64,000 nt of DNA, from assembly GCA_030390025.1 (NCBI GenBank), contig CM059430.1, positions 3,968,001-4,032,000 on the forward strand, in the 5' to 3' direction. A program made the position numbers and the translations under genes. Shown piece after piece: positions 8,731 through 64,000 of the stretch; position 1 is the stretch's first letter; the number at the start of each line of letters is the position of its first letter. The notes under the pieces were generated by a model, which was not told the origin of the DNA, did no database searches, and saw only the letters and a list, made by a program, of their open reading frames with translations. This DNA comes from Squalus acanthias. Lineage: Eukaryota.

Positions 8731-9617
8731 TCTACTTTTCTTTATGGACTTTGTATAGCGTGACGGAGTGTGTTGAGAGAGGCATGAAGCATGTGGATTA
8801 GACTGATATTGTGTAATCAGTAGGAGTGAGAGAAGTATGAGTGAAAAAGGAGGATCAGAAGCATGGAGTGAGCGGGAGAAGAAAGTGATGAGTTCATAGT
8901 AATGTCTTATTTTTACCTAACAAATTTGATCCCAACATTTATGTATAGTTTTCTACAGACCCTAAGAGGTGCTGCAATGGTAGGCAACATCTGTACCTCA
9001 GGTTTTAATTATTGGCTAAAATGGATGATGGTATTGATTATTGAGTCGGGCAGATAAGACGGGCGTTAAGTTATGTGAAACTTGTTGAGCAATTGCCTGA
9101 AGGGCCGGTCTTCAGCAAGCTTGATGTTGAACCCTGATTAAATAGGTAGGTTTTTCTTTTTAAAAAGCGAAATAATTTGTTCTCGTGACACTCCCTTACA
9201 CTAAATGCAGAATCCTCGAGTCGCCCAATAGTCTCATTGCACCATTTCAATTGACAGCAGTAAAATTAAACCTTTATTTTGTTCCCTAAACCAAAATATA
9301 TCTAACTTTAGCAATTTTTTTTCCTCATCTAAGCCCACCTCTTCTGGGACTATTGTCTTAACCAATTTTACAGCAAACTTCATTCAATACCATACACTTT
9401 AACTGCCACATTTTTGGACAATTTAAACCATATTAAACATTCTAATTGTCACTGCATTTTGGCAGGGAAGACTTATTTCAAAGGTAAAAATGACCACCAC
9501 AGAACGACCCCACAATACCAGGTATTTGTTTTGGATTTACAATATGAGGAGGATTTAATGATTGCTGTCCAGTGTGGTTAGAGAAGGTCTGCATTGAGAA
9601 GATGTTGCTTTCCTTAC

Positions 9618-10114
9618 CTTATATAGTTTCAAGCTGGCCTCATGCCTCGAGTTGACAGTGTGCAATCGCAGCTTCTCAATGCTGTTGGTGTAGTAGTCGC
9701 ATGCGTTGCATTTCAAGTGCACTGGGTTCCCAATGGCCACGCATTTCAGTCGCCACTCGTTGGCCTTGCCCCCTTCCTTGATGTGTGCCACGAGCTGGTA
9801 TTTTTGCACGTGCTTATCTGTCTTACAGTGCAACTGGAAGTTGGCCTTGAGCTGGGTGTTGTAGCGGCAGAGCTTACACTGGTAGGAGTCACCAATGACT
9901 GCTTTCCACTCCTCCTCGGGCAGGTGGCGCTCAATGTTCATGTGCAGACTGAGTGTCTCCAGGTTGTCTGTAGTGAATCGGTTGCAAACCGCACACTGAA
10001 AAAGCTTCAAAGAAGGGTCATTCGTGGTTGTGAACGTTTCGCCAAGGTTCATGAGTTCTTCTGACACCAGCTGCCCGCCTCCCAGTCGCATGTCAAGAGG
10101 AATCTCACCACCAA
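9618..10114 (-). CDS. ZFHX3: ZFHX3 second coding exon (497 bp, C2H2 zinc fingers)
   Basis: Acceptor TTTGTTTTCTGCAG|TT (G+TT = Val, phase matches the upstream exon) and donor AAG|GTAAGG. Encodes [21 protein letters not shown]...[25 protein letters not shown]...HEASLKLYK. 2653+497 = 3150 nt, an exact codon multiple. Confidence 0.96.
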
Positions 10115-11029
10115 CTGCAGAAAACAAAGAATATAAAGGAAAAATGAAATGCTTAGCAACAGCTCCAGAAAGGATGAAAAGTGATGTTCATACCCTGTAA
10201 GATGTTGACCTGATAACAAACTCGTTGATCTGACAGTCTGAATTACCAGTCTGAATTCCTCTTCTAAAGCTAACATTGACAATACTGCATCTGTTAATGA
10301 GGTCAAATCTACCCACCAATATCTGGGGATAGTATTTGCAACTTGGAAGGGCTTTATGCAAATGAAATGGCAAATCTGCTGCAATATTCAACTGCTGGAG
10401 ATGATAGTGACAGACGTATATTCATTTGATTTGTTGATAGTAAGCTGTGCATAAGAGTCTGCTTTAGGCTGATGTCCCTGAGTACAAGACTGAGATGGTC
10501 AAAACTCATTTTACTTGTGATCAGTTATTAGCCTTCAGGGACAGTGATTCCTATCAGCTAATGCCAGATTAGATTTAAACTTTAGCCTCTACAGGTTTCA
10601 AAGCTAAACATGCAGTGCGCACGTAGCAATAGAAAACATGGTCAAAACGTGGCCCATCAAGCTCAAAATGACTTGCATTTGTCTCTCCTGTGTCAGCAAT
10701 TTTAATAGTTGCACCATTTTAGAATGCAGTTTTAAAAATAAGATCCATTATTCATTTTAATTACTGTCAGCACCCAGGTATATTGATGATGGTGACCATT
10801 TTGGTGTCAGCTTAAAAAGGGGTTTGCAGTAGATAATGATCCTGTCCTGGAATCTAACACTTTTACAATTAACTGGGCTCCATGATACAGCTCCTGTCAA
10901 AATCAATTCAAACACATAACTTTTTTATCCCACCACAGCAGGTACTTTATATACCTAGAATTTTCTACATATTCCCCATTTTGTTGAGGACTGCAAGATT
11001 TCCCCAATGTATTAGTGATGATGAGGCCT

Positions 11030-14296: not shown

Positions 14297-15818
14297 GCAT
14301 AGAAGATAGGAGCAGGAGTAGGCCATTCGGCCCCTCGAGCCTGCTCCACCATTTAATGAGATCATGGCTGATCATCCAAATTCAGTACCCTGTCCCTGCC
14401 TTCTCCCCATATCCCTTAATCCCTTTAGCCTTAAGAAATATATCTATCTCCTTCTTGAATATATTTAATGAATTGGCCTCAACTGCCTTCTGTGGTAGAG
14501 AATTCCACAGGTTCACCACTCTCTGGGTGAAGAAATTCCTCCTCATCTCAGTCCTAAATGGCTTACCACTTATCCTTAGACTGTGACCTCTGGTTCTGGA
14601 CTCCCCCGCCATCGGGAACATCCTTCCTGCATCTAGTCTGTCTAGTCCTGTTAGAATTTTATAAGTTTCAATGAGATTCCCTCTCATTCTTCTAAACTCC
14701 AGCGAATACAAGCCTAATCGACCCAATCTCTCTTCATACGTCATTCCTGCCATCCCAGGTATCAGTCTGGTGAATCTTCGCTGCACTCCCTCCATGGCAA
14801 GAACATCCTTCCTCAGATAAGGCGACCAAAACTGCACACAATACTCAAGGTGTGGTCTCACCAAGGCCTTGTACAACTGCAGCAAGACATCCTTGCTCCT
14901 GTACTCGAATCCTCTCGCTATGAAGGCCAACATACCATTTGCCTTCTTAACCGCCTGCTGCATCTGCATGCTTACCTTCAGCGACTGGTGCACAAGGACT
15001 CGCAGATCTCGTTGCACTTCCCCTTTTCCCAATCTATTCCCGTTCAGATAATAATCTGTCTTCCTGTTTTTGCCACCAAAGTGGATAACCTCGCATTTAT
15101 CCACATTATACTGCATCTGCCATGCATCTGCCCAATCACCCAAGCTGTCCAAATCATACTGGAGTTTCTCTGCATCCTCCTCACAGCACACACGCCCACC
15201 CAGCTTTGTGTCGTCTGCAAACCTAGAGATATTACGTCTAGTTCCCTCGTCTAGATCATTAATATATATTGTGAATAGCTGGGGTCCTAGCACCGATCCC
15301 TGCGGTACTCCACTAGTCACTGCCTGCCACTCGGAAAAAGACCCGTTTATTCCAACTCTTTGCTTCCTGTCTGCCAACCAGTTCTCTATCCAAATCAGTA
15401 CCTTACCCCCAATCCCATGTGCTTTAGCTTTGCACGCTAATCTCTTATGCGGGACCTTATCGAAAGCCTTCTGAAAGTCCAAATACATCACATCCACTGG
15501 TTCTCCCTTATCTATTCTACCAGTTACATCCTCAAAAAATTCCAGTAGATTAGTCAAGCATGATTTACCTTTTGTAAATCCATGTTGACTTTGTCCGATC
15601 CTGTCACTGTTTTCCAAGTGCTCTGCTATTACATCTTTTATAATGGACTCTAGCATTTTCCCCACAACCGATGTCAGGCTTACTGGTCTATAATTCCCCG
15701 TTTTCTCTCTCCCACCTTTTTTAAACAGTGGGGTTACATTAGCTACCCTCCAATCCATGGGAACTGTTCCAGAGTCTATAGAATTTTGAAAGATGACCAG
15801 CAATGCATCTACTATTTC
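14297..15818 (-). mobile_element. Young 5'-truncated CR1 LINE with uninterrupted ORF2 RT and C-terminus
   Basis: ORF to stop at 14382 with [63 protein letters not shown]. 3' UTR ends CTCCTATCTTCTATG. Possible TSD TATGAA (14291-14296 and 15819-15824). Confidence 0.95.
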
Positions 15819-17444
15819 TATGAATTTGATTAAAAAAAACTTTATGAACTCTGCAATGTTTCTACGTATTAAATTGAATACATTGAAATTGCTAAAATAC
15901 AAGCAACTCAACATGCAAATGATAAATAAAATTAAGCAATACTTTTTGAAAGACACACACACACAAATAAACGAAAGATGGGGTGCTGCAACTTTCCATG
16001 ACAGAACAAGAAAAGAAAAAGTGAAATGGAAGCAGAAGAAGAGACTAAACACAGGCAGAGATTCATTTGCTGGCATATTTTACGAGAGAAGTATTTATAA
16101 ATGACAGGTTGTCTAGAAATCTAAAAAATTTGCAGTATTTCCAAACATTCAAGACACTCTAATATTATACATTTGTTAAAGGTATACAATTTCTATCTGT
16201 ATTGGTTTATTTCACTTGGTTTATATAAAAGACTCAAAATTTGTTTTACTTTGTGCGGTTCAACCACTATTATAGTAACAATGAAAGATTTGTATGCGAG
16301 GGGAAGGGACAGTTTGAGGCATATGTTACAAATATCAACATATTGTGGATCTTTGAACCTAACTTTCCAAAATTCTTCCCCCCATCTCCGATCAATAATT
16401 GTCAACATATAAGAGCAGGCACAAATGGAGTCTGAGGTTTGAAACATTTGTTCATGTGGTGCCTTCAGTGACTCACAAGCCACAAAGTTACTAAGAATAG
16501 GCTTTGATTTTTATTATTACAGGTATGGAAAGGCAGAACAAAGGAAGAATTCCTGTGGCCATTATGTGTAGCGGCATCAAAATAGCATTGAGAAAGAACT
16601 AGATTATAATTTGGTTACACGCAACAACTAGAGCAATTCTTACCCCATGGTTATCAATAGATGTAAAGAAAGCTCTCTGAGGAATCTAATGGCACATTGT
16701 TGGCAGTCTGTATGGGTTTCCCACAAAGCCTTAGCTTTAACATATATATATTCTCCCTAGATCAAATGTGGTCAACAGCTCTTGCTTTACTATTTTTATA
16801 CCATGGGATATGTACTCAATTTGCAGAGAACTATTTTCATTCCATATATGGACAGAACAGGATATGCTTTACCATTTACAATCTCAATAGCCATTTTTCT
16901 TTCACCCACTCATTAGAAACAATTGGTAAATAATGTTCCCTTAGTAACTACCTTATCACCAGTGAACTAAATTAACCTTGCAGTCACAGAGATGACAAAA
17001 GAACAAATCCCTTTTTTTGTTTTTAGAAGCCATTATGATTCACCAGCTCCTTACTTTTATTCTTACTTTCTAACTTACCCTAAGTTAAACTAAAATCGAA
17101 TTATTTTTGTTGTATTAACTTTGTGACTTGAGTTATTTGATCATGTTTGGCCATAAAGTAATCATCATATCAAATGGGGCCCTAACATGTATATCAACCT
17201 CTTCATGTTCTTTCCTTTGTAGCCTTCTAGGCCATACACCTGGCATCATATCTGAGAGGGAAGGGAAATAAGGCAACTTCATGGACACTGCAATGTTGCC
17301 CTCTGTCTAGCCATTGGGAGGTGCTGAAGTTTAACTTGTGATGAATGAATCTTGCAGTTTTTTCTTCACCCACTCCCCCACCCCCCCGCCCCAACCCTGC
17401 CTAAGCACCTCCATTTTTGCTTGAATTAAGGGAGATTGCTTTAT

Positions 17445-21045: not shown

Positions 21046-22275
21046 GGTGTGGTCTCACCAAGGCCTTATCTTCTACTCAAATCCTCTTGTAATAAAGGCC
21101 AACATACCATTTGTTTTCCTAATTGCTTGCTGTACCTGCATGCTCACTTTTTGTGATTTGTGTACAAGGACACCCAGGTCCCTCTGAATACCAACATTTC
21201 CCAATCTCTCAACATTTAATAAATATTCTGCTTTTCTAGTTTTCCTACCAAAGTGGATAACTTCACATTTCTCCACATTATATTCCATCTGCCATGTTCT
21301 TGCCCACTCACTTAACCTGTCTATATCCCTAGCAGCCTCTTTGTGTCGTCAGCAAACTTGGATACATTACTCTCGGTCCCCTCATCTAAGTCATTGATAT
21401 AGATTGTGAATAGCTGAGGCCCAAGCACTGATCCTTGCGGCACCCCACTAGTTACAGCCTGCCAACCCGAAACTGACCCGTTTATTCCTACTCTATGTTT
21501 TCTGTCCGTTAACCAATCCTCAATCCATGCTAGTATATTGTCCGCAATCCCAAGAGCCCTAATTTTGTATAATAACCTCTTGTGTGGCACCTCATCGAAT
21601 GCTTTTTGAAAATCCAAATACACTACGTCCACTGGTTCCCCCTTATTTACCCTGCTAGATACAACCTCAAAAAACTCTAACAAATTTGTCAAACATGATT
21701 TCCCTTTCATAAATCCGTGTTGACTCTGCCCAATCATATGATTTTTTAAGTGCCCTGTTACCCTAATAATAGATTCTAGCATTTTCCCGACTACTGATGT
21801 CAGTTTAACTGGTCTATAGTTCCCTGTTTTCGTTCTCCCTCCTTTCTTGAATAGTGGGATTACATTTACTACCTTCCAATCTGTGGGGACCGTTCTAGAA
21901 TATAGGAAATTCTGGAAGATCAAAACCAATGCATCCACTATCTCTGTAGTCACCTCTTTTAAAACCCTAGGATGTAGGCCATCAGGTCCAGTGGATTTGT
22001 CAGCTTTTAGTCCTATTAATTTCACCAGTACTATTTTTTTACTAATACTAATTTCTTTAGTTTCCTCATTTTCACTACACCCTTTATTCCCCACTATTTC
22101 TGGATTGCTTTTTGTGTCTTCTTCCACAAAGACAGATGCAAAGTATTTGTTTAACGTCTCTGCCATTTCCTTATTCCCCATTATAATTTCTCCTGTCTCT
22201 GCCTGTATGAGACCCACGTTTACTTTTGCTAATCTCTTCCTTTTTACATACTTATGGAAGCTTTTACAATCTGTT
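21046..22275 (-). mobile_element. CR1 LINE internal fragment (same subfamily as 27888-29919)
   Basis: ORFs 21321-22217 and 21073-21288 with [40 protein letters not shown]. Small deletion after FADDTK; no 3' end. Confidence 0.93.
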
Positions 22276-24930
22276 ATGATGCCTCTTGCTAGTTTGAGCT
22301 TATATTTTTTTATTAAAAACTGTATATGGTCTCTCCCCCCCCCCCACCGTAAAATATTGATAAAAAATGACCAGTTTGAGTAATATTTACATCAGCAATA
22401 AATGCTTATTTTTCTTGAAGATGGCTAAAGTCTGTACTTAAACAGAAACTCTTAGGATTTGGGCAATGCTGGCAAGGTTGCATTTATTGCCCATTCCTAC
22501 TTGCCCTGGTTGTGGTGGTGGATCCTCAGAGCAATTGTTTGTACAACTGCTTGCTTGGCTTGCTTGGCCAATTCAGAGGGCATTAAGAGTCAACTATGTA
22601 GTGTGGGACTGGAGTCCCATTCAGGCCAGATATGGTAAGGATGGCAGGTTCCCATTGCTGAAATTTAATTTTAAACAACCTAAAAAACAGTGATAGAGAG
22701 CTCTCCCAAAAATTATAATGAAACTAACTGACAGATTTGTAAGGAGTTCACCCCAGATACTCATGACATGCCCAACTCTGGATAAGAACTTTCTAAACTC
22801 TGTGGGGGAAAAAAAGCCTTTCTTCCAATTTTTAGGGGGGGACATGCATTGAAGATTTCTTTTTCTCATTATTACTAAATGTACTTAGACAAGATACAAG
22901 GATTTGGATACAATACATTATTGAACTTCTTATTGCCATGATATTGAGGCTCTAGTAGAGTTCAGAACAAGGAATAAGCCTATCGTGGTAACTTGATATC
23001 TTAAGTTACTAGGATAGGCTTAGAGAATTAGGGTTAATTGTTTTGGAGAAACATAGGCTACGGGGAAATACCATTCAGATTTAAAAATTTATAATAAAAG
23101 GGCTGGTGCAGTAGATTTGGAGAAGATATTCAAAATGATTATGATAATAGGACTCATCGAGAAAATACATGAGCAAAAGAAAACCCCTCAGATGTTATTT
23201 CTTCTCTCAAATTGCCGCTCTGGAACAGGCTACCAGCACACGGGGCAAGTACAGATGCCCTGCAATTCTTTCAGAAGAGATTTGTAAAGTTCCTTCATGA
23301 GATGAACACTAACATTACAAGGAGGGCAGAGGTATGTGTTAAGTAAGATTGCGCAGTACTGCATCGTGAGCTATGGTCTAATGGAACTTGCTCAATTACC
23401 ATATGGAATTGGGGATGAATTACCCAGAGTTTCTTCTGAAAATGTTTCCCTTTTTTTTTTGCCTACCCATGAAGATACTATTCTTAAAGGTTAGGAAGAT
23501 GGTGAGTTGAGTTCTGCAAATGGAGCAGGCACTGGTGGACCGGAAAGTCTTTTCACATCCTTTTTTTTGATAGCCTGACTTAGCTTACATGTGAGCATTT
23601 TACTGACTCACAGGTTAATACTAACTCTTCTCACCTATTCAGAAATGTTGGGGAATACTGAAGGGCAGTGATGCACCATCTCACTATTTTTCAAATAAGC
23701 CTAAAGGTTTTGTTTGATCCTTCTAAGTCAGACTTTTGAGCAAGATATTCAAATGAAACTGCCATTATCCAATCAGGCTTGCTTTAGACTGAGGCCTACT
23801 AACTGGTGGGTGTAGTGTCACCCAAGAAAAGCCTTTGTATGACATCAATTACTCTGTCTTGTGTCATAAATTATTCAAATTCAAATTATCGAGCATTGTA
23901 AAATTGGATTAGGTCCTGTAGATCAGGTTCATCTCAGACTTTTAGGGTTAGGATTGTTTGCTCAAGGCCAGAATCTAAACAGGCCAACGTTACAAATGGA
24001 TCCGGAACAGAACTATTACTGTTTTTCGTGATGCATCAATATTCTTCCGTTACTAACTCATTCTATATTTTATGATACTTATGTAGTTGATACTTTTACC
24101 TACTAGTTAGCAACTTCCCCTCTCCCTTTGCTGGTTACTGGGGGAACTCTCCTCCAAACTTATCAAGTGAAGCTTGAAAATTGTTTTTTAAATAATAAAG
24201 AAAATGCAGCGTCATACAGTCTCATAACAAAATCAAATTTCACATTAAAATTAATGGGAAACTTGTTGATAATGGTGAAACAGCCAAATACACTGGAGAC
24301 ATTCTGGATGAAAATCTCAGTTAAACTATAAAAAGCTGGTCCAACATTCTTTTTAATTCAATTGCGTTTGATCTAGTCTTACTTTAAAACATGGTAAACT
24401 TTTTCTGAATACCCTCGTTACTGTTCACTTTATGTATTGTCTGTCTATCTGGGGACAAGTACGCCCGGCTGATTTACAGTTAACAGTTAAACTGTATAAT
24501 AGAGGTCATCATATCCCTTTATAATGCAAACCTCAATTTACATCACTGCTATTTATTCAAAGACTATAAAATCTAGTCTTTTTATGAGAAGTTTAACATT
24601 TCACATTCAGTTTTAATATTTTTTTTTATATATAAGTGCTATCATGGACATGCTCCAGGGCAATTATCACAAAAAAAACTTTTGAAACCCACCCAATTCA
24701 AGGACAAACGATTATCAGGCAGCCTATTAGACTGAGTGGTCATTTCTCAGTGCAGGGTTCCACTGGAATCAACCCTTTTATAAGCTTATATTTCCTGTAA
24801 CTTGTAAACATGTATGTTAGTTTGCATGGCATTTTGTAGCCTTCGGAAATATATGCATCAATGTATTGCACAGTAGTTAAGGAGAACTATGTGGAAAATA
24901 TTTGAAATTAATAAAGTTATTATCTATTAC

Positions 24931-27583
24931 CTAGTGCAGGTGCAAGCGCTGATACTGCATTTGTTGGGTCCAGTTGGAATCCACCCAGCATAAACTGTGT
25001 GTCGGTTGCATTTTCCAGCTTCAGGCCAGGGAGGTTCATGTTCTGGGCCAGGTAGTACTGGTAAAGCTCAGCCTCTGCAGGTGCCAAGTTGCTGAGGCCT
25101 AAGTGTCTGTTGTGCTGAATCTGGTTCATGTTCTGCTGGAGCAGCATCATGTTGTGCATGTGCTTCTCGCTGGTCATATGAATGCGCAGGTTCCTGGCTA
25201 CATTCGTTTCGTAGTCGCACACCTCGCACCGCCAAGTGGGTTTGGTTTTTGGTTTGGTGGGCGAGGAGGCCCCGCAGGTGCTCATACTGGCGGCGGCGGC
25301 GGCAGCGGCCGCCACAGCCGCTCCAGCAGTGTGGCTGAAAACTTGATCGCCCCCGCCGTTCTGTAGGTTCTGCATGTTATTGAGATGCTTGTCAGACTGC
25401 ATATGAATACTGAGATTGCCTTTGGTTGTAGTGGAGTAGTTACACACCTCACATCGGAAAGGCTTGTAACCACATGTATAGCTCTCGCCCCGGGCCAACC
25501 GCGGGTGAGGTTGCCCAGATTTGCAATACACACATGAGCCACCGGATTCGGGGTGTTTTTCCTTCATGTGGGCCTCCAGCGTCTGCTGGTACTTGTAGTG
25601 CCAGTTACACTTTGGACACTTCAAGGTCTTGCATGAGTTCCGAGAATGCATCATGGTCATGTGCCCACCAAGGGAGCGGGAGGAGCCCAGGACCGTGTCA
25701 CACTTCGGACACTCAACGCTGCTTCCGGATGAGCATTCCCCACCCCCCAGGTCGCAGGGAGTGCTGGTATGCTGGTGATGGGAGGTATAGATTCCTTCCT
25801 CGCCATCGACAGGTTCATTTGGTTCAGGAGCTGTGGCACTGTCTTTATTGGCACTTTCATCTACAAAGTCCGTCCTATTACTCTCAGTATTACCGACACT
25901 GCTGTCGCCGCTTGCACTGTCGCTTGACAAGCTCACTGCATTCCTCCCGTTTGCACCATCGAAAACAACAAAGGAAGAAGTAGAAGAAGAAGAGGTGCCC
26001 CTTGGAGAAGGGTTCAGCACATTAGGCATTAAAGGAGATTTAGAAATGCTTTGGTTTGAGAGAGCGAGTTCCTTGCTGCTACATGCATCACCCTCAGGGT
26101 CTTCCTGGGGCTCATCATCATCATCCTCATCCGACTCGTTTGGGAACAGTTCTTTGCACTCCTCATCTTCCTCTGCTTGTTCAGCAGAGTCCGCCTTTTC
26201 TATGAGGCTACTGTCAGCGCTAAACTCTCCACTGGCTTTTTTCTTCTCAATTTCCATCCCCAAATCCTTGCTCTCTGACATTTTGGTAGGCCCGGAAGCA
26301 AGGTGGCCCAGAGGGACTGAGGTAATTGGGGTCTTTAGGGCTGAGCTCGTCAACCCTCCAAGGTTCAACAGAGCACTTTGTGCCAGCGGGATTGAATGAG
26401 GCTGCTCAGCTGCACTTGTGTTACCTTCAGAGTCTTTTAATAAAGCCAAACCGGCCTGGACAGCCTCATCACCATCAACATGGATTCCACTAAAAGTACC
26501 GTAGAAGTTCTGACCAGGGCCAATGAGGTTAGCTGTGGAAACTAAAGGGTGTTGAAAGTTTTTGTTTTTTGGTTCCAGAAAGCTTATAAGAGGTTCCTTG
26601 TCTTTGCCTATCCCTTGGATGATAGCAGACACGTTCTTATTACTTAAGAGCTTGTGCTCCTCTTCACTAAGGGTCATTCGGTGGTCATGCACAGCATGCG
26701 TTACAAATGACCTCACATATCCAAAAGACAACTTGCACAAAAAACACATTAAAATCGGCTTTCGTTTGCCATAGAGCACGAAACTGTCAAACTTAGACAA
26801 GTCCACATTGTTAGGGACATCTTTGGATACACAAGAGTTTTTGGCAGAGCCATCACTGTTCAGGTAATCCTTGTTGCTTTTGTGTCGCACATCAAAAACA
26901 CGGAAAGTGTGCAAGACAGGACTGATGCCTGTCAGTGCTGAGGTATTTGGGAATGCCTGGTCAGAACCAAACCACTTCCCAAAAGATGAGGCTATGTGAA
27001 AAGTGTTGATGATCTGTGGGTAGACAGAGACGGATGCTGCGGAGGTGGACTCCCCTTGCTTATTCCCAGCGTTGGACATAGAGTTCATGAACAATGCTGG
27101 GAGAACACTACTGCCACTGGGCCCTCCAGACTGGATACTTTGCATTAGCTGGTTCACATTCTCTACGATGTAGGCAGAGCCATCTGGCTGATAGACGATC
27201 TCCCCAGCCAGGTTCTCCACATCGCTTTCCTCTGCCTCGCTCATTTCACTGTCACTTTCCTCCTGGAGGATCTGAGGGTGGGAGTTCGGGCAATGGTGTT
27301 CCATGTACTTTTGTAAACTTGAGAATGAGGATGAGCACTCGTTGCAGCTGACCTCCTTCGTGGACAATGAGCTGTGTGAAACAACAGCCGCTGCAGCAGT
27401 CTCTGAGCTGCACTCGTTGAAGGGTGCCCTTAGGTTCTCACACGGGACGCAGTTCTCTCGTGCAGACTCCATTGAACCAGCTTTATCAGAGACCTGGGGG
27501 TTGGATTCAGTCCATTCCTGATGCTGGGAGGTGCTGCACCCATCCTCTTGCCCAGTGATGGTAGGGGAGTCACAGGTTTCCAT
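24931..27583 (-). CDS. ZFHX3: ZFHX3/ATBF1 first coding exon (codons 1-884 plus 1 nt; N-terminal C2H2 zinc fingers, acidic and Ser-rich tracts, poly-Ala)
   Basis: 887-aa ORF with ZFHX3-type segments ([100 protein letters not shown]). Donor CTAG|GTAATA after 24931 (phase 1). The last residues of the ORF (GNR*) are intronic read-through. Confidence 0.95.
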
Positions 27584-27629
27584 AGTGATGGCTACATGAG
27601 CGTTTCATTGCATCCAGTCCGGCAGGGGC
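27584..27629 (-). other. ZFHX3: 5' UTR portion of the first coding exon of ZFHX3
   Basis: On the minus strand a pyrimidine-rich acceptor TTTCTTTTATGTTTCAATTTTTAG| (AG at 27631-27630) lies 46 nt upstream of the ATG. Confidence 0.85.
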
Positions 27630-28955
27630 CTAAAAATTGAAACATAAAAGAAATAAATAAATGCATTATACATAGAAATAAACTCTAACATCTGACATAC
27701 TGCTACCAAATACTTTAGGATAAATTGGCCCTTAGAGTAATATATTCCTTCTATATTTTACGGAAAACTGAGTATCTACAAGATTAACATTCCATAAAAT
27801 TCTAAAGCCTGAATTACTCTTGGCAATATAAGTGGACAAAGGCTCAACTCTCTGCCCACTATTTTAGCAGGAGTATTAGCTCATTTCAAATAAATCGGTT
27901 AATCCCTTACAGGCAGAGACAGGAGAAATTATAACGGGGAATAAGGAAATGGCAGAGACATTTCATCTGTCTTCACGGAAGAAGACACAAAAAACATTCC
28001 GGAAATAGTGGGCAGCCAAGGGTCCAGTGAGAATGAGGAACTTAAAGAAATTATTATTAGTAAATAATTAGTACTGGAGAAATTAATGGGACTAAAAGCC
28101 AAAGAAATCCCCTGGACCTGATGGCCTACATCCGAGGGTTTAAAAACAGGTAGCTACAGAGATAGTGGATGCATTGGTTTTGATCTTCCAGAATTTCCTA
28201 TATTCTAGAATGGTCCCCGTGGATTGGAAGGTAGCAAATTCAAGAAAGGAGGGAGAGAGAAAACAGGGAACTATAGACCAGTTAGCCTGACAACAGTAGT
28301 AGGGAAAATGCTAGAATGTACTGTTAGGGATGTGGTAGCAGTGCACTTAGAAAATCATGATATGATTAGGCAGAGTCAGCATAGATTTATGAAAAGGAAA
28401 TCTTGTTTAACAAATCTGTTTGAGATTTTTGAGGTTGTAACTAGCAGGGTAGTTAAGGGGGAACCAGTGGATGTAGTGTATTTGGATTTTCAAAAAGCAT
28501 TCGATAAGGTGCCTCACAAGAGGTTATTACACAAAATTAGGACCCATGGGATTGGGGGTAATATACTAGCATGGATTGAGGATTGGTTAATGGACAGAAA
28601 ACAGAGAGTAGGAATAAACAGGTCATTTTCAGGTTGGCAGGCTGTAACTAGTGGGGTACCACAAGGATCAGTGCTTGGGCCTCAGCTATTCACAATCTAT
28701 ATCAATGACTCAGATGAGTGGACCGAGTGCAATGTATCCAAGTTTGCTGACAATACAAAGCTAGGTGGGAAAGTAAATTGTGAGGAGGACGCAAAGAGGC
28801 TGCAAAGGGATATAGACAGACTAAATGAGTGGGCAAGAACATGACAGATGGAATAAAATGTGGAGAAATGTGAAGTTATCCACTTTGGTAGGAAAACTAG
28901 AAAAGCAGAATATTTATTAAATGTTGAGAGATTGGGAAATGTTGGTATTCAAAGG

Positions 28956-29172
28956 TGGTCATGATGCGGAGATGCCGGTGTTGGACTGGGGTGGACAAAA
29001 ATGAGAAGTCGCACAACACCAGGTTATAGTCCAACAGTTTTATTTGAAATTACGAGCTTTCGGAGCGCTGCTCCTTCGTCAGGTGAAGTGAGGGAATACA
29101 AATCGGCTCCGAAAGCTCGTAATTTCAAATAAAACTGTTGGACTATAACCTGGTGTTGTGCGACTTCTCATT
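28956..29172. mobile_element. Palindromic Penelope-like pLTR insertion, family A, nested in a CR1
   Basis: 69-bp perfect inverted arms 28998-29066 and 29106-29174; tail 28956-28997. 14-bp direct repeat TTGGTATTCAAAGG at 28942-28955 and 29173-29186. CR1 ORF2 sequence resumes across the insertion. Confidence 0.85.
29050..29086 (-). ncRNA. Minimal hammerhead ribozyme motif
   Basis: Minus strand reads TCAC-CTGACGA-A-GGAGC agc GCTCC-GAA-AGCT-C-GTAA: perfect 5-bp stem II, CUC cleavage triplet, one mismatch in stem I. Confidence 0.72.
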
Positions 29173-30076
29173 TTGGTATTCAAAGGGATCTGGGTGTCCT
29201 TGTACACGAATCACTGAAAGTGAGTATGCAGGTACAGCATGCAAATAGGAAAGCAAATGGTATGTTAGCCTTTATTTCAAGGGGGTTGGAGTATAAGAGT
29301 AAAGAAGTCTTACTGCAATTATATAGGGCCTTGGTAAGACCACACCTGGAGTACTGTGTACAGTTTTGGTCTCCTTACCCAAGGAAGAATATACTTGCCA
29401 TAGAGGGAGTGCAACGAAGGTTCACCAGACTGATTCCTGGAATGGGGGGGATTGTCCTATGAGGAGAGATTGAGGAGACTAGGCCTATATTCCCTAGAGA
29501 TTAGAAAAATGAGAGGTGATCTCATTGAAATGTATAAAATTCTTAAGGGGCTTGACAGGGTAGATGCTGGAGGATGTTTCCCCTGGCTGGGGAGTCTAGA
29601 ACTCGGTGTCACAGTCTCAGAATAAGGGGTCGGCCATTTAGGACTGAGATGAGGAAAAATTTCTTCACTCAATGGGTTGTGAATCTTTGGAATTCTCTAC
29701 CCTAGAGGGCTGTGGATGCTCAGTCGTTGAGTATATTCAAGACAGATATTGATAGCTTTTTGGATACTAAGGGAACCAAGGGATATGGGGATAGTGCGGG
29801 AAGGTGGAGTTGAGGTTGAAGATCAGCCATGATCTTATTGAAGATCAGCCATGCTCTTATTGAATGGCTCGAAGGGTCGAATGGCCTGTTCCTGTTCCTA
29901 TTTCTTATGTTCTTATGTTAAAACAGCAAACAGAGGAATGTCATACAAATGTGTTCAATGGTCACCCATTAATGTTGCCAGTGATTTCTAAGCAAATAGG
30001 ACTAAAATGATCACTAAAGAAAAGGTAAATATCTCTTTCATCAGCTCTCCAACGGTCAAGAGAAACTGAACATATC

Positions 30077-40075: not shown

Positions 40076-41628
40076 GCCGATACTCTCTGGAGTTTAGAAA
40101 AATGAGAGGTGATCTCATTGAAATATACAAGATTCTTAGGGGGATTGACAGGGTAGATGCTGAGAGGTGGTTTCCAAGCACATGGGATTGGGGGTAAGGT
40201 ACTGACTTGGATAGAGAACTGGTTGGCAGACAGGAAGCAAAGAGTTGGAATAAACGGGTCTTTTTCCGAGTGGCAGGCAGTGACTAGTGGGGTTCCGCAG
40301 GGATCGGTCCTAGGACCCCAGTTATTCACAATATATATTAATGATCTAGACGAGGGAACTAGATGTAATATCTCCAAGTTTGCAGACAACACAAAGCTGG
40401 GTGGGCGTGTGTGTTGTGAGGAGGATGCAGAGAAACTCCAGTATGATTTGGACAAGTTGGGTGATTGGGCAGATGCATGGCAGATGCAGTATAATGTGGA
40501 TAAATGCGAGGTTATCCACTTTGGTGGTAAAAACAAGAAGGCAGATTATTATCTGAACGGCAATAGATTGGGAAAAGGGGAAGTGCAACGAGACCTGGGA
40601 GTCCTTGTGCACCAGTCGCTGAAGGTAAGCATGCAGGTGCAGCAGGCGGTTAAGAAGGCAAATGGTATGTTGGCCTTTGTAACGAGAGGGTTCGAGTACA
40701 GGAACAAGAATGTCTTGCTGCAGTTGTACAAGGCCTTGGTGAGACCACACCTTGAGTATTGTGTGCAGTTTTGGTCGCCTTATCTGAGGAAGGATGTTCT
40801 TGCCATGGAGGGAGTGCAGCGAAGATTCACCAGACTGATACCTGGGATGGCAGGAATGACGTATGAAGAGAGATTGGGACGATTGGGCTTGTATTCGCTA
40901 GAGTTTAGAAGAATGAGAGGGGATCTCATTGAAACTTATAAAATTCTAACAGGACTAGACAGACTAGATGCAGGAAGGATGTTCCCGATGGCGGGGGAGT
41001 CCAGAACCAGGGGTCACAGTCTAAGGATAAGGGGTAAGCCATTTAGGACTGAGATGAGGAGGAATTTCTTCACCCAGAGAGTGGTGAACCTGTGGAATTC
41101 TCTACCACAGAAGGCAGTTGAGGCCAATTCATTAAATATATTCAAGAAGGAGTTAGATATATTTCTTAAGGCTAAAGGGATCAAGGGATATGGGGAGAAA
41201 GCAGGGACAGGGTACTGAATTTGGATGATCAGCCATGATCTCATTAAATGGCGGCGCAGGCTCGAGGAGCCGAATGGCCTACTCCTGCTCCTATCTTCTA
41301 TGTTTCCCCTGTCTGGAGAGTCTAGAACAAGGGGGCAGTCTCAGGATAAGGGGTCAGCCATTTAAGATGGAGATGAGGAGGAATTTCTTCACTCAGAGGG
41401 TTGTGAATCTTTGGAATTCTCTGCCCCAAAGGGTTGTGGATGCTGAGTCGTTGAGTATATTCAAGGCTGAGAGCGATAGATTTTTGGACTCTAGGGGAAT
41501 CGAGGGATATGGAGATCGGGCGGGAAAGTGGAGTTGAGGTCGAAGATCAGCCATGATCTTATTGAATGGCGGAACAGGCTCGAAGGGCCGTATGGCCTAA
41601 TCCTGCTCCTAATTCTTATGTTCTTATG
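40076..41628 (+). mobile_element. Host CR1 3' fragment (40076-40175 plus 41302-41628), split by the nested CR1
   Basis: Sequence for [20 protein letters not shown] continues after the insert as FPCLESLEQ...MRRNFFTQRVVNLWNSLP; ends TTCTTATGTTCTTATG. Confidence 0.88.
40176..41301 (+). mobile_element. Young 5'-truncated CR1 (same subfamily as 14297-15818) inserted into an older CR1
   Basis: About 16 aa differences over about 346 aa versus the 14-kb copy and a near-identical 3' UTR. GTTTCC duplicated at 40170-40175 and 41302-41307. Confidence 0.93.
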
Positions 41629-58854: not shown

Positions 58855-60146
58855 TGAGAAATGTTAACGCCTGGGATATTTTGATCAGGTAACATCTTGT
58901 GTAATACAATTACAACAGGAGAGAGTAAAAATTCCTGTCGGCAAATTTTACGCAACAGCACTTAACATGCTCATACCACATTCCTGTATGTTCTGTACTT
59001 ATGCAAGTATTAACATAAATGGGTTAACACCTGCACAAGAACGTCACACACAAAATGTAACACAAACACATTAAGCAGTCATATGTAAAATTTGATCAGA
59101 ATTTCTAATCTAATATCTACTAATAAACAATTTACTATGTTTACAGCAGTGACAGAAATAGCCTCAAAGTTATTAGCCAATAGGGAAAATATTTCTTTTC
59201 CAGCAACTTTGGTAAGTAAAGCCACCCTTTGTCAGCCCTTTAAAGATAAGTTTGACAGTAATTCTTCATGCTTCATATTCATCTTATGAGTCGATCTTCA
59301 CATTCCACGTCGATTACAGCCATCAACTGGCATGTATTCTATATCTAAAAACAGTTAAAAGCTGTCATTAAATAAATTTAAGAGTTCAGTTGTAAAAAGA
59401 TGTTCTTATATAAACTAATGCCTCGTGTCTGCTCATCTGGCAGAAGATAAGTACCTTCCTCCTAAATTGGCAGTGAATGAGTTTTAAAAATTTGTTACAA
59501 CACCTGCAAAATATAAATCATCAGAGTGTTGTGGCTAGCAAGTCAGGAATTAAGTGAAGCATCACTCGAGAAAATTCAGTACACATAAAGTACAGCATTT
59601 TACTAAACCGCAGCATACCAGGGCCGACCCAAGGATTTTTCCTTTCTATCTCTTCTCTTCAGACTTGCTGCAATGTGTCCTGCAGATGTTGCCGTTAATT
59701 CATCAGTCCAACTCCTGGAGGAGTTATTGCAAAGCTGAGCACGCAGCACAGTTATGTACAGACAAACCCACAAAGACACACAAATACAACAGTTTGTGTG
59801 TACGCTGACAAACACACACTCATTTAGTTTACCCACAAACATGATTAAAGGTTTACAGCTTAGCACGCATTTAGCAGAAAATAATAACGGCAACAAATTT
59901 GATAATGAAAGGGTTGCCTTGTATGGTGGGTTGAGAACAAGGAACGGCTTTGGGACAGCACAAGACTCAAGCCGGGAAATGATAACCCCCTCACCCAATT
60001 CCCATCAACTTCCCACACCTACACAGCCCTCCTTGGACAATCTAAGTCTCCATGGACGTCAATAATGCTCTTCCTTGTCTGACCTACCAGGAGATTCACT
60101 TAACCATGGGAACCGGTGCCTAGCCAGTCAACTCTTGTGGTATTCA

Positions 60147-60382
60147 AAATAACAACAGAAAACGCTGGAAAAACTCAGCAGGCCAGGCAGCATCCGTGGA
60201 GAGAGAAAGAGAGTTAACGTTTCAGGTCGATGACCTTTCATCAGAACTGTTCTGACGAAAGGTCATTGACCTGAAACGTTAACTCTCTTTCTCTCTCCAC
60301 GGATGCTGCCTGGCCTGCTGAGTTTTTCCAGCGTTTTCTGTTGTTATTTCAGATTTCCAGCATCCGCAGTATTTTGCTATCG
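60147..60382. mobile_element. Palindromic Penelope-like pLTR insertion, family B (101-bp arms plus 33-nt tail)
   Basis: Arms 60147-60247 and 60249-60349 with 2 mismatches and a 1-nt centre. Tail 60350-60382. 14-bp direct repeat TCTTGTGGTATTCA at 60133-60146 and 60383-60396. Confidence 0.85.
60249..60283 (+). ncRNA. Minimal hammerhead ribozyme motif, family B (mirror copy on - strand at 60212-60248)
   Basis: GTT-CTGACGA-A-AGGTC att GACCT-GAA-ACGT-T-AAC. The minus-strand copy reads AGTT-CTGATGA-A-AGGTC atc GACCT-GAAACGTT-AACT. Confidence 0.7.
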
Positions 60383-62654
60383 TCTTGTGGTATTCATCTT
60401 GAATCAGGAGTCTAAGAACCCAGTATTGCAGCTAATGGGCCAATGGGCAGTAACTATTTTTTTTAAAGAACAAATCCTCTTAATACTTCAAATTCAACAA
60501 GAATTCTAATATTTATTTCACACTGGTTTTTTTTCTCCAAAATGTATACTAACCATTTTTTTTTCCTGTAACACCAATTGGCTGCATAAGGACTGTGGAG
60601 TTACTCTTTCATCTAAAATATTGGGAGCTGACAAGGGCAATAAACACAAGGAAAGATGTAGTTTTCCTGCCCTCTGGCTCTTCTATTGTTTCCAATAGGA
60701 GAAGAAAAAATATAGGTCTAATTATAAACTGCAGTAAAAGACCAATGCAGTTAAACTCCTGACTTCAGCACCCAAGCAGCTGGTCTTAAATACCTAGCTA
60801 TTTTTAGATAATAGATATATTTTTTCTTAAACTAAATGCAGCCCAGGAATAACAAAGAGTTAATTCAGTTTGGAGGTTGTTTTAAATAAAAATAAAACTT
60901 CAGAAGCTGTAAAAGCAAAATATTTTTTCAACACTTAAGCAAACTCATTTTGTGTAATATCCCCTGACAGTATAAAAGAACTTTTCAAATTGCTTTATAT
61001 AAATAATAAACCCAAAGATCACTTCACTTATTGCCTTATTTCCTCATCATCATTTTTTAAAGTAAATCCTATTCAGTTACGTGCAACATTTACACTCGTT
61101 TCTCTGTAGATAAAGTGAAAGGGTAGGAGAGTGGGGGGTGGGGGGGGAGATGATTTTCTCAGTCCTGTGAGTTCTTCACACTGCATAATAGGGGTTCAAA
61201 TCTCTTGTAACTTGCAGAAAACTTCTGAGAATACACACACTCTTAAGGCTTTCTCTAGTTGTAAGCCACAACACACCAGGCAATGCTGGAATATCAAATG
61301 TGATGGCCCCCTGCTTTGTTTAGGGAGAGCTCTGTAATAGCAACCTTTTAATCTTGGTGGTTTTGTTTAGGTGCTGCATATTCATTTCAAGGATTTCTCT
61401 CTCTTTTTACTACTCTATACATATGGTTCAACCAGGATGACAAGCGACACTAGCTCCTTTTATATTGGTTTCTATTGCGCTTGTGCTGCTGGTTCCTGAG
61501 GTGCCGGTCTTGCCCAACCGACAGCAACCCCAGAGTGAACTTGTTGGATTTGCTGAAGACCGGGGGTGGGGGGAAAAAACTGGTCACCCTGCGTCAACGA
61601 ACCCAGCAAGCTTACTTTGGATTGCTGCCCCAAGACTCGCATGTCGGGAGCCAGTGGCACTCGCACAGCACAAAAACAACCACCAGCTGTTGTCCTGTAC
61701 ACTTTAGGAGTGCAGCCAGAGGCAGAAACAAGGTTCGCCCGCCGTTGGCTGCAGTCCTGTGAGTGAGCAAGCCGAGGTTTGTAGACTCACAGAATTACGG
61801 TTCGATAAAGCTTACAGGTTAAGTAGCGGTTTCAGTGAAATAAACCTGAGGAGATGGTCCTGTGTCCCTGCACACCGTGGGGTACAATTTCAGGCAAGCC
61901 CACCACCCACTCGACGGAAGTGGTTGGAGTCCCAAACCATTCTCATGCTCGGGCTGCACTTAAATATAATCGGCGTGCTGCTGGTGTTAAGTGAGAGCTG
62001 ATAGGCAATTTGACGATTGGAGCAGGCGGGGGGGGGTGGGGGGGGGGGCGGGGGGAGGAAATCCAGAGCCTCTTCTGCGGAGCCAAGCTAGCCGCAGTAA
62101 GTAAAAGGTGATTACGGGGATGGGAGTTAGACTGTTGATCATGCAATGGGAAGAGTTGATTTTTGTGGGGCCAGAGCCTTTTTTTAAAAACTCGATACGC
62201 CCATTGGTAGCTCAAAATTACATCGGGGTGCTGTTACTATCACATGGGCTGTTGCGGCGCCTGCCTGTTTCTGGTGGCACCCGGGTCCGCCATTTTAAGG
62301 TCCCCGCCAAAATGGCGGCAGCAGGAACGGGGCAGGCAAGTGCCATGCCACTTTTTTTTTTAAACGGTGAGAGTGTAGTGCATGAAGTTCACTCTCCAGA
62401 AACAGGATCTCAGAGTGAGTGAAAACCATCACCTGTGAATGACGAGTATCTTTGAGGTCGCCACAGTTTTCCCATTACCATGAAAAGGTCCGACTGCAAC
62501 AACATGCTCAGCCTTTCAGTACAATCGTGAATGTTTCAAATGCAAGTTCAAGTTAAAAAAAAAGCTCAGAGAGATGGCGTAGCTTTGCGTTCAAGGTGTG
62601 GACAGAATGTCACATTACAGTAGAATTTGGTCACAATTGACCAGACTAATTAAT

Positions 62655-62742
62655 GAATCATAGAAATTTACAGCACAGAAGGAGGCCATTCAGCCCATCA
62701 TGTCTGTGCTGGCCGAAAAAGAGCTATCCAGCCTAATCCCAC
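62655..62742 (-). mobile_element. CR1 3' tail fragment
   Basis: GAATCATAGAAATTTACAGCACAGAAGGAGGCCATTCAGCCCATC matches the end of the 32409 element. Confidence 0.7.
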
Positions 62743-63166
62743 GGATGGCACAAAGAGGAAAGTGAAATAATGTGGGTTCTACTGTAGAGCAATTTTCCTC
62801 ACAATTTCTTTTTTTCCCCCCTCTTTGCCTCCTGAACTCTCAATGCTGGAGTATGATTTCGCAGTCCCCAGCAACTTCCCCACCCCCGTATCACACTCAA
62901 GTGATCATTCTTCATCAGTGGGCCTGGTGTTGATGGGAGTCATAGCCCGGCCTAATTCTGTCTTCACCCAACATCTACAAGTGCACTTTCCAGCAGGGTG
63001 TCACTGGATGGTGATCAATGGTGGGAATCTCGGCTAATTTTCATTCGTCCTTAGTTCAGGAACATTGAGACCAGTTGTGGTGGCCCACCGCTGCCCAATG
63101 TGAGATCAGCAATCTCAGCACAGACCTGTGATCAACCCAGGAATCTTCCTGGTGGAGATGTTTTCA

Positions 63167-63391
63167 AAATTGAGAGGTCGCACAACACCAGGTTATAGTC
63201 CAACAGTTTTATTTGAAATCACAAGCTTTCGGAACTATCGCTCCTTCCTCAGGTGAAGTCCAATTTACTTCACCTGAGGAAGGAGCGATAGTTCCGAAAG
63301 CTTGTGATTTCAAATAAAACTGTTGGACTATAACCTGGTGTTGTGCGACCTCTCAATTTTGTCCACCCCAGTCCAACACCGGCATCTCCGC
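63167..63391. mobile_element. Palindromic Penelope-like pLTR insertion, family A (95-bp perfect inverted arms plus 30-nt tail)
   Basis: 63165-63259 is the exact reverse complement of 63267-63361, with a 7-nt loop. Tail 63362-63391. Direct repeat GAGATGTTTTCA at 63155-63166 and 63392-63403. PLE assignment rests on the hammerhead motif and the inverted-arm-plus-tail architecture. Confidence 0.85.
63270..63307 (+). ncRNA. Minimal hammerhead ribozyme motif (mirror copy on - strand at 63219-63256)
   Basis: TCAC-CTGAGGA-A-GGAGC gata GTTCC-GAA-AGCT-T-GTGA: stem I, conserved core, stem II, and palindromic AGCT in place of helix III. Confidence 0.75.
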
Positions 63392-64000
63392 GAGATGTTT
63401 TCAGCAGAGAAACCTTTACGATGACTCATTATGCAATGAGCCACAATTCAATAAGCCAGTCACTTTCTTCAGTAACTGTTACTGCAGGTTAGTGGGGTTT
63501 CGATTAGATCAGTCATTTAGAGGGCGGTGTGAATACTCTCACCTAATGGACAAGAAGATAATAAAGTGGTTTAGTATTGGGAGATGACGTGTGAACTGTG
63601 ATAATGGACTGGGGCTGATTTTTTAAAAAGTAACCATCAGATAGCAAGTACATGGAGAGGGAAAAATTGGGAATTATAAATAATGGGGATGACTTTCATC
63701 TCATTACCTCCTCCTGGTGTACACTGAAAAATGGGAGGTACTGATGCAAAGATAAAGCAGCTGCTAGCCCCGCCCAATTTACCGCTGCTTTTATATAGTC
63801 TGATTTTTGGGTGGGAAGGAACTTCATGCGTAAATCTTTATTTCATACCAATCGCAGAGACTCACCAACTTCTATCATTGAATCAGATATCCTCAGCAGC
63901 ATGCTAAACGGTGACTTGAAGTAAATAGGATTACAGCCAATCATGCTCAGAGGTGAAGCTGCGAGCAAAATTAAGCGAGCAGATATCCCCCAATGGCACA

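Follow-up and report, generated by a model that had tools for sequence, protein, structure and literature searches.

How a Penelope-like element (PLE) chooses its RNA template, and what gives its insertions a tail on one side and an inverted arm, are two questions of retroelement biology. A 64,000-nucleotide stretch of Squalus acanthias DNA (the window) contains two palindromic insertions that bear on both. In each, part of the tail is the complement of a segment of the arm downstream of a predicted hammerhead ribozyme. The question treated here is what this complement is for. The elements, their tails and their palindromic form are already known; the helix that the complement could form is a testable addition.

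Two PLE families with tailed, inverted insertions

Both features of the window are 5'-truncated, inverted insertions of two Neptune-type PLE families, called A and B. The palindromic family A insertion (63155-63403) is bounded by a 12-bp TSD, with its copies at 63155-63166 and 63392-63403 on the plus strand. A tail-less inverted short arm (63167-63259, minus strand; inverted repeat I18, 100%) is followed by a direct arm (63267-63359, plus strand), which is the pLTR end up to the short end, and by a tail (63360-63391, plus strand). The family B insertion (60133-60396), also palindromic, has a 14-bp TSD (60133-60146 and 60383-60396, plus strand), a tail-less inverted short arm (60147-60247, minus strand; inverted repeat I16, 98%), a direct arm up to the short end (60249-60349, plus strand) and a tail (60350-60382, plus strand). 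A second two-armed, tailed family A insertion lies at 28966-29177 on the minus strand.

The direct arms carry predicted minimal hammerheads on the plus strand. That of family A (63270-63307) is a descriptor match with its core from 63274 and a predicted cut after 63303. The family B hammerhead (60249-60283; core from 60252, predicted cut after 60280) was read from the sequence, as it scores under the cut-off of the descriptor script, which other B copies matched. The descriptor gave 89 A and 24 B matches in 1.05 Mb of fetched genome DNA, and an Rfam scan of the 64-kb window gave no match at the gathering score, hammerheads included. Both predicted ribozymes resemble the minimal metazoan PLE ribozymes of Cervera and De la Pena (2014, PMC4209133) in their core, short stem I, extra base before stem II and palindromic positions 15.2-16.2. 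The published descriptor stops at stem I, and the putative helix lies downstream, outside it.

The two families number tens of thousands of copies, with 100,328 exact matches to a family A 22-mer and 32,256 to a family B tail 27-mer in the 3.7-Gb genome. The window copies have no ORF. Full-length relatives have a single frame, of 966 aa in L112 and 905 aa in L162, both with an RVT_1 domain. A GIY-YIG match in L112 (E 6e-4) falls just under the Pfam cut-off, and the VVY and YIG motifs align in both proteins. The A and B proteins are 31% identical, and the named proteins closest to them come from sharks. Both contain a CX4CxxC linker and an internal cysteine pair between GIY and YIG. The Neptune clade is marked by a CX2-5CxxC linker ahead of the endonuclease and by a pair of cysteines between GIY and YIG (PMC8557442); the assignment of A and B was made by these linker motifs, which are common to Nematis as well. 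No PLE family beyond A and B was found in the 1.05 Mb of fetched DNA, and neither a metagenome scan with a single protein nor a scan of viral contigs gave a match. Run X17, labelled as an echinoderm metagenome, contained 0.78 of the sampled family A words, for which contamination or diet is a possible source.

Full-length copies have the order ribozyme, arm, tail, ORF, and the tail is thus the RNA that joins the upstream pLTR to the ORF. It measures 32-33 nt in the window, with a median of about 36-38 nt, and in full-length family A copies it ends at the ATG of the ORF. The long ends of family A (L161, L162, L167) cluster at this start codon, and most tailed copies stop a few bases from it. 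The pLTRs occur in direct tandem or inverted arrangements (L111, L112, L161, L162, L167 and the inverted repeats of the window). Canonical EN+ PLE insertions have an inverted pLTR, an optional 30-40-bp tail at one end and a short TSD (PMC3846280; PMC8557442). The A and B insertions share this form, being 5'-truncated with an adjoining inverted copy, a one-sided tail that leads into the ORF and a short TSD. The portions of those two accounts covered here give neither an RNA structure for the tail nor counts of long and short arms. A reading of the palindromes as a DNA transposon or MITE was rejected because the arms are of unequal length and are the ends of elements that encode RT.

Several other features of the surroundings were seen. 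Long exons with zinc fingers (24920-27604 and 9555-10187, minus strand) belong to a host gene that we take to be similar to ZFHX3, and the PLE insertions are either upstream of this gene on its strand or intronic. Fragments of CR1-type LINE RT occupy 14382-16079, 21321-22391, 28209-28844 and 40157-41218, and two CR1 copies of the window, in inverted orientation, share 97% identity across 1,131 nt. The same few codons of the CR1 RT have been entered by several independent insertions of family A (L003/L004, L007/L008, L013/L014, L021, L025, L296); this site matches 3 of 43 tail flanks and is a possible target hotspot.

Predicted pairing between arm and tail

In family A, AGTCCAACA (63370-63378, within the tail) is the exact reverse complement of TGTTGGACT (63321-63329); in family B, CAGCATCCG (60358-60366, within the tail) is that of CGGATGCTG (60300-60308). 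All four predicted helix strands are on the plus strand, and neither 9-bp complement gains another Watson-Crick pair at its ends. The original prediction of perfect 9-nt complements is thus exact for both window copies, and several subfamilies depart from it, as described below. It also named an alternative in family A, and the two segments concerned are indeed present: CAACACC (63374-63380) can pair with GGTGTTG (63337-63343, plus strand). This is the minor register, with a predicted pair probability of about 0.11 as compared with about 0.88 for the main one. In one full-length A copy a competing register wins. Family B has in addition a 5-bp inner hairpin (60316-60333, plus strand) whose outer pair is U-A or U.G.

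The length of the perfect stem exceeds chance. When the longest perfect stem with a 20-60-nt loop was sought in the region past the ribozyme cut, 9 bp was reached in 0.3% (A, P 0.003) and 0.15% (B, P 0.0015) of 2,000 dinucleotide shuffles, so the complement does better than the shuffled controls that had been suggested as a check. Stems of 9 bp occurred in 2 of 265 windows of surrounding genome; for the two ORFs the counts were 2 of 70 and none of 72. The thermodynamic test is weaker, giving for long-range pairs a non-significant P of 0.06 (A) and 0.09 (B) with 100 shuffles, and MFE z values of -0.5 and -2.2.

Copies of A and B were fetched by motif and protein searches, and the following counts are therefore not fractions of the genome. 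Among copies with a tail, 22 of the 47 from A and 16 of the 56 from B have all nine pairs as Watson-Crick; with G.U allowed, 47/47 and 42/56 are fully paired. Eight of the pairs are invariant among the 47 A copies, and the outer pair is U-A (22 copies) or U.G (25 copies); no two-sided change was seen in this set. The 62 ungapped B copies fall into four subfamilies. B1 is paired at 9/9, young B has U.G in place of C-G at pair 7, B2 is mismatched at pair 2 (A.C) in 14 of 18 copies, and B3 is compensated, with G-C replaced by A-U at pair 2 in 7/7 copies. One B2 73-mer has at least 1,873 identical copies genome-wide and one B3 87-mer has 65, while a 73-mer from L043, examined for the compensated B form and carrying private changes, has a single match. 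Pairing is present in the main subfamilies of both families. Master-lineage changes mostly keep the pairing (U-A to U.G in A, U.G in young B and A-U in B3).

At a CpG in the tail, C>T outnumbers G>A by 37:5 and 24:2 in two contexts (hand count among the first 100 matches listed). Neutral decay predicts equality, and the excess among the matches listed in the first context has P 4e-7; since C>T exceeds G>A in these matches, the T is carried by master lineages. The C>T change preserves the pair and G>A breaks it, and C>T is also synonymous in the open frame of B.

The search for compensatory changes gave a divided answer, with B3 compensated and B2 mismatched. Covariation in B was not significant, as 33-37 of 500 shuffles scored as high; this set comprised 51 of the 62 copies, leaving out two shifted B1 copies and nine near-duplicate young ones. 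RNAalifold chose another register for the same strands of B, and the linkage of arm and tail bases among copies had a Fisher P of 0.058 overall and 1.0 within the B2 context. In the diverged run X21, all 13 variant calls on A lie outside the 18 helix columns, 12 of them in the loop; the columns outside the helix are equally invariant, so the conservation may be of sequence. On B, one of nine X21 calls is in the helix (G>A at 60301, 23%), and a change in its partner is not listed. Nothing in runs X12 and X17 aligned to B, and runs X18-X20 gave only 1-4 contigs that aligned to A; all runs consisted of contigs. These data fit a 7-9-bp helix in which wobbles and a single mismatch are tolerated, and covariation does not prove it.

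The pairing could instead be a by-product. The protein would read short motifs repeated before each start site, and the tail would stem from a local duplication; its pairing with the arm would follow from a hairpin that was already there in the arm. In family B, TTTCCAGC is found before both ends, as a near-direct repeat at 60324-60333 and 60352-60362, and is a candidate protein-binding motif, used twice. The mismatch tolerated by B2, the covariation result and the competition among several registers also agree with such an origin. It is opposed by the existence of the compensated subfamily and by master changes that favour wobbles over mismatches. We give this explanation a little over one chance in four, the comparison with other families below being included.

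Insertion ends and the layout shared with PAc

The original prediction had noted a similar geometry in A and B despite their differing sequences, and measurement bears this out. Both have the cut, then 17-19 nt (17 nt in A, 19 nt in B), the helix, a loop of 40-49 nt that contains the short end, and then the long end. Short ends fall within the loop, at 6-17 nt (A) or 8-12 nt (B) ahead of the 3' strand, and long ends lie 11-23 nt (A) or 15-21 nt (B) past it. A small hairpin is predicted at 60366-60377, directly before the family B long end; its equivalent in family A is weak, with 3 bp.

Every one of 49 two-armed insertions flanked by a TSD (at least 8 bp required; target duplications of 8-16 bp) has one long, tailed arm and one short arm. 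They comprise a first set of 24 A and 9 B copies and 16 new A copies. For five of these B loci, retrieved with a tail motif, only a long+long pair could have counted as a failure. The new copies come from 20 further A pairs fetched by the arm motif alone, of which 17 have a TSD and are all long+short, one being a duplicate of an earlier locus; the three pairs without a TSD are long+short, full-length+short and short+short. The two arms of a family A insertion differ by a mean of 0.55 positions, versus 4.7 between insertions, and are without any difference over 60 nt in 12 of 20 insertions, versus 10% of between-insertion pairs. Family B is noisier in this respect. The centre of the palindrome differs in every copy, with 80-3,845 nt between anchors.

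These ends bear on two suggested functions. The edge of the helix had been proposed to define the fixed boundary of the arm, which it does not, since short ends lie within the loop. The tail had also been proposed to fold back and prime synthesis of the inverted arm. Self-priming has been put forward for PLE palindromes, but on a template of antisense strand and at the junction of the inverted copy (PMC3846280). The helix could not prime the inverted arm here, because its 3' strand is followed by 11-23 more nucleotides of the element and because the palindrome has no fixed centre: its position changes between copies, and in those of the window it is at least 55 nt upstream of the helix. Instead, the inverted arm starts at the loop site, adjoining the TSD. 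The junction map thus contradicts fold-back priming, which we regard as highly improbable.

In L1 twin priming, both nicked strands prime cDNA and an inverted piece results inside one TSD. In L1 the internal site at which the second primer anneals is variable, and the inverted segment is a different one, whereas in A and B both cDNAs would copy the same segment from two fixed sites.

A closer parallel is PAc (Poseidon_Ac) of the green anole, for which Frangieh et al. (2024, PMC11167929) described nicking and extension of both DNA strands in vitro. RT starts internally at two measured sites, and the interval between them is the genomic tail. The same start sites are used by both strands. The protein is predicted to be a dimer, and RNA to +172 is required, well past the helix. 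By hand count on the printed template, CAUGGCC at +50-56 complements GGCCAUG at +94-100 (7 bp), the cut follows +29, the 5' strand lies 20 nt on, and RT starts at +111-118, 11-18 nt past the helix. PAc therefore has the layout of A and B: its complement is spaced alike, and its two start sites lie on either side of the tail. It is also alike in having a short region after the ribozyme, AT-rich targets and extension of both strands. PAc belongs to the Poseidon clade, while A and B carry the Neptune/Nematis linker, and the finding of one layout in three families of unrelated sequence argues against a by-product. With at least seven pairs required in position bands that were set after the PAc numbers were known, such a layout was seen in 6-9 of 1,055 windows of genomic DNA and in 0-2 of some 240 windows from ORFs, a background near 1%.

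The 'AC-rich stem loop' named at +111-118 in that work fits, in our reading, a small local hairpin at the long site and not the long-range helix; the small hairpin before the family B long end resembles it. The letters of Fig. S1B (+30 to +125) cover the complement, and the figure may draw the long helix too. The part of the text covered does not propose the helix as general. Genomic copies and in vitro products differ in one respect: the PAc start sites were used without a strand difference, whereas the TSD-flanked shark copies are long+short in 49/49 cases. This rule is a constraint for any model, and the published in vitro data do not reproduce it.

Cleavage by the PAc ribozyme needs protein and is dispensable for insertion in vitro (PMC11167929). 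The phrase 'after the cleavage site' in the original prediction accordingly holds as a position and not as a requirement, given that PAc inserts in vitro without need of cleavage. In the youngest B subfamily (L081-L117), the endonuclease is 100% identical in more than 110 matches, and CCGA replaces the hammerhead core CUGA with the helix retained, which fits the PAc result.

The protein dependence of cleavage is also in keeping with a helix that acts in the 5' leader of the mRNA, on translation or on the folding of the ribozyme, and not in reverse transcription. The tail doubles as this leader; the first in-frame ATG of the long family B ORF is in the 5' strand of the helix (60300-60308) in full-length copies, and the A tail ends at an ATG. 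The position of the ATG relative to the helix differs among A, B and PAc, however, and the insertion ends keep register with the helix. The second methionine of B, 40 codons past the first, suits the alignment to the A protein better. As the first 40 codons of B do not align to that protein and vary between subfamilies mostly by amino-acid changes (by eye), the second methionine may be the real start. Control of the leader is unlikely on this evidence, at perhaps one chance in eight.

Alternatively, the relevant fold could form at the DNA level, either in extruded DNA or in the cDNA made first, and would there make the short-end position accessible to the second target strand for joining. The antisense DNA is predicted to form this helix as well, with whole-strand energies of -11.8 and -12.6 kcal/mol, and the strict long+short rule needs an ordered process. 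Against this, the G.U pairs of the RNA (pair 1 of A and pair 7 of young B) become A.C mismatches in cDNA, and in PAc the RT starts at these sites were mapped on the RNA itself. A fold in DNA is quite unlikely for these reasons.

Among more distant PLEs, 80 metagenomic loci yielded 15 sense-strand ribozymes with at least 100 nt downstream. At least seven Watson-Crick pairs were present in 4 of the 15 (1.3 expected), and summed over the set there was no excess over shuffles (P 0.29; thermodynamic P 0.79), although 10 of the 15 may lack the tail. The other five run into a long frame and surely include the tail, and one of them has a 7-bp stem. After one metagenomic PLE ribozyme (L189, minus strand near 524) comes a TA repeat enclosed in a long, imperfect hairpin. 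The absence of an excess in distant PLEs is in line with a by-product, as is the statement in PMC11167929, which cites earlier work, that the D. virilis tail was needed for recognition of DNA by the endonuclease. A general, perfectly paired PLE feature is not supported, given the B2 mismatch, the non-significant covariation and the lack of excess in these 15 metagenomic PLEs, a small set. No statement of an arm/tail helix as a general PLE feature was found in the literature covered, subscription papers lying outside it, and the part of PMC2377424 covered holds nothing relevant to such a helix. The complement is real, better than chance and partly anticipated by PAc.

A possible scaffold for two RT start sites

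A role in RT recognition is the best surviving of the suggested functions, because the pairing is present in the main subfamilies, beats shuffles and recurs as a layout in the unrelated PAc; the covariation result leaves it short of proof. We judge at about even weight that the arm/tail complement forms an RNA helix and that this helix is part of a scaffold for the choice of RT start sites. The PLE protein would bind the RNA structure that contains the helix, and this would set two RT start sites, one inside the loop and the other 11-23 nt past the helix. The analysis shows directly what the elements are, where their ends cluster and that one long and one short arm go together. Internal initiation at two sites, known in vitro for PAc, is suggested for A and B by their genomic ends. 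The protein, a dimer in PAc by prediction, would nick both target strands 12-14 bp apart. One 3'-OH would prime at the distal site and give the tailed arm, and the other would prime in the loop and give the inverted, tail-less arm. Both cDNAs would stop early and then join head to head. The helix, whose formation in RNA and role we infer, would keep the loop site and the distal site together, for which 7-9 bp with wobbles would suffice.

It is possible, though doubtful, that the Neptune and Poseidon PLEs of vertebrates have a single cis-acting RNA architecture in common. Its helix, 7-9 bp long and starting about 20 nt past the cut, would close a loop of 37-49 nt and present two start sites to the subunits of an RT-endonuclease dimer, one site for each nicked strand. 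As an in vitro system already works for one PLE, PAc, the helix is precisely testable. If the shared architecture is true, a single structure would account for the tail, for the inverted arm and for the rule of one long and one short arm.
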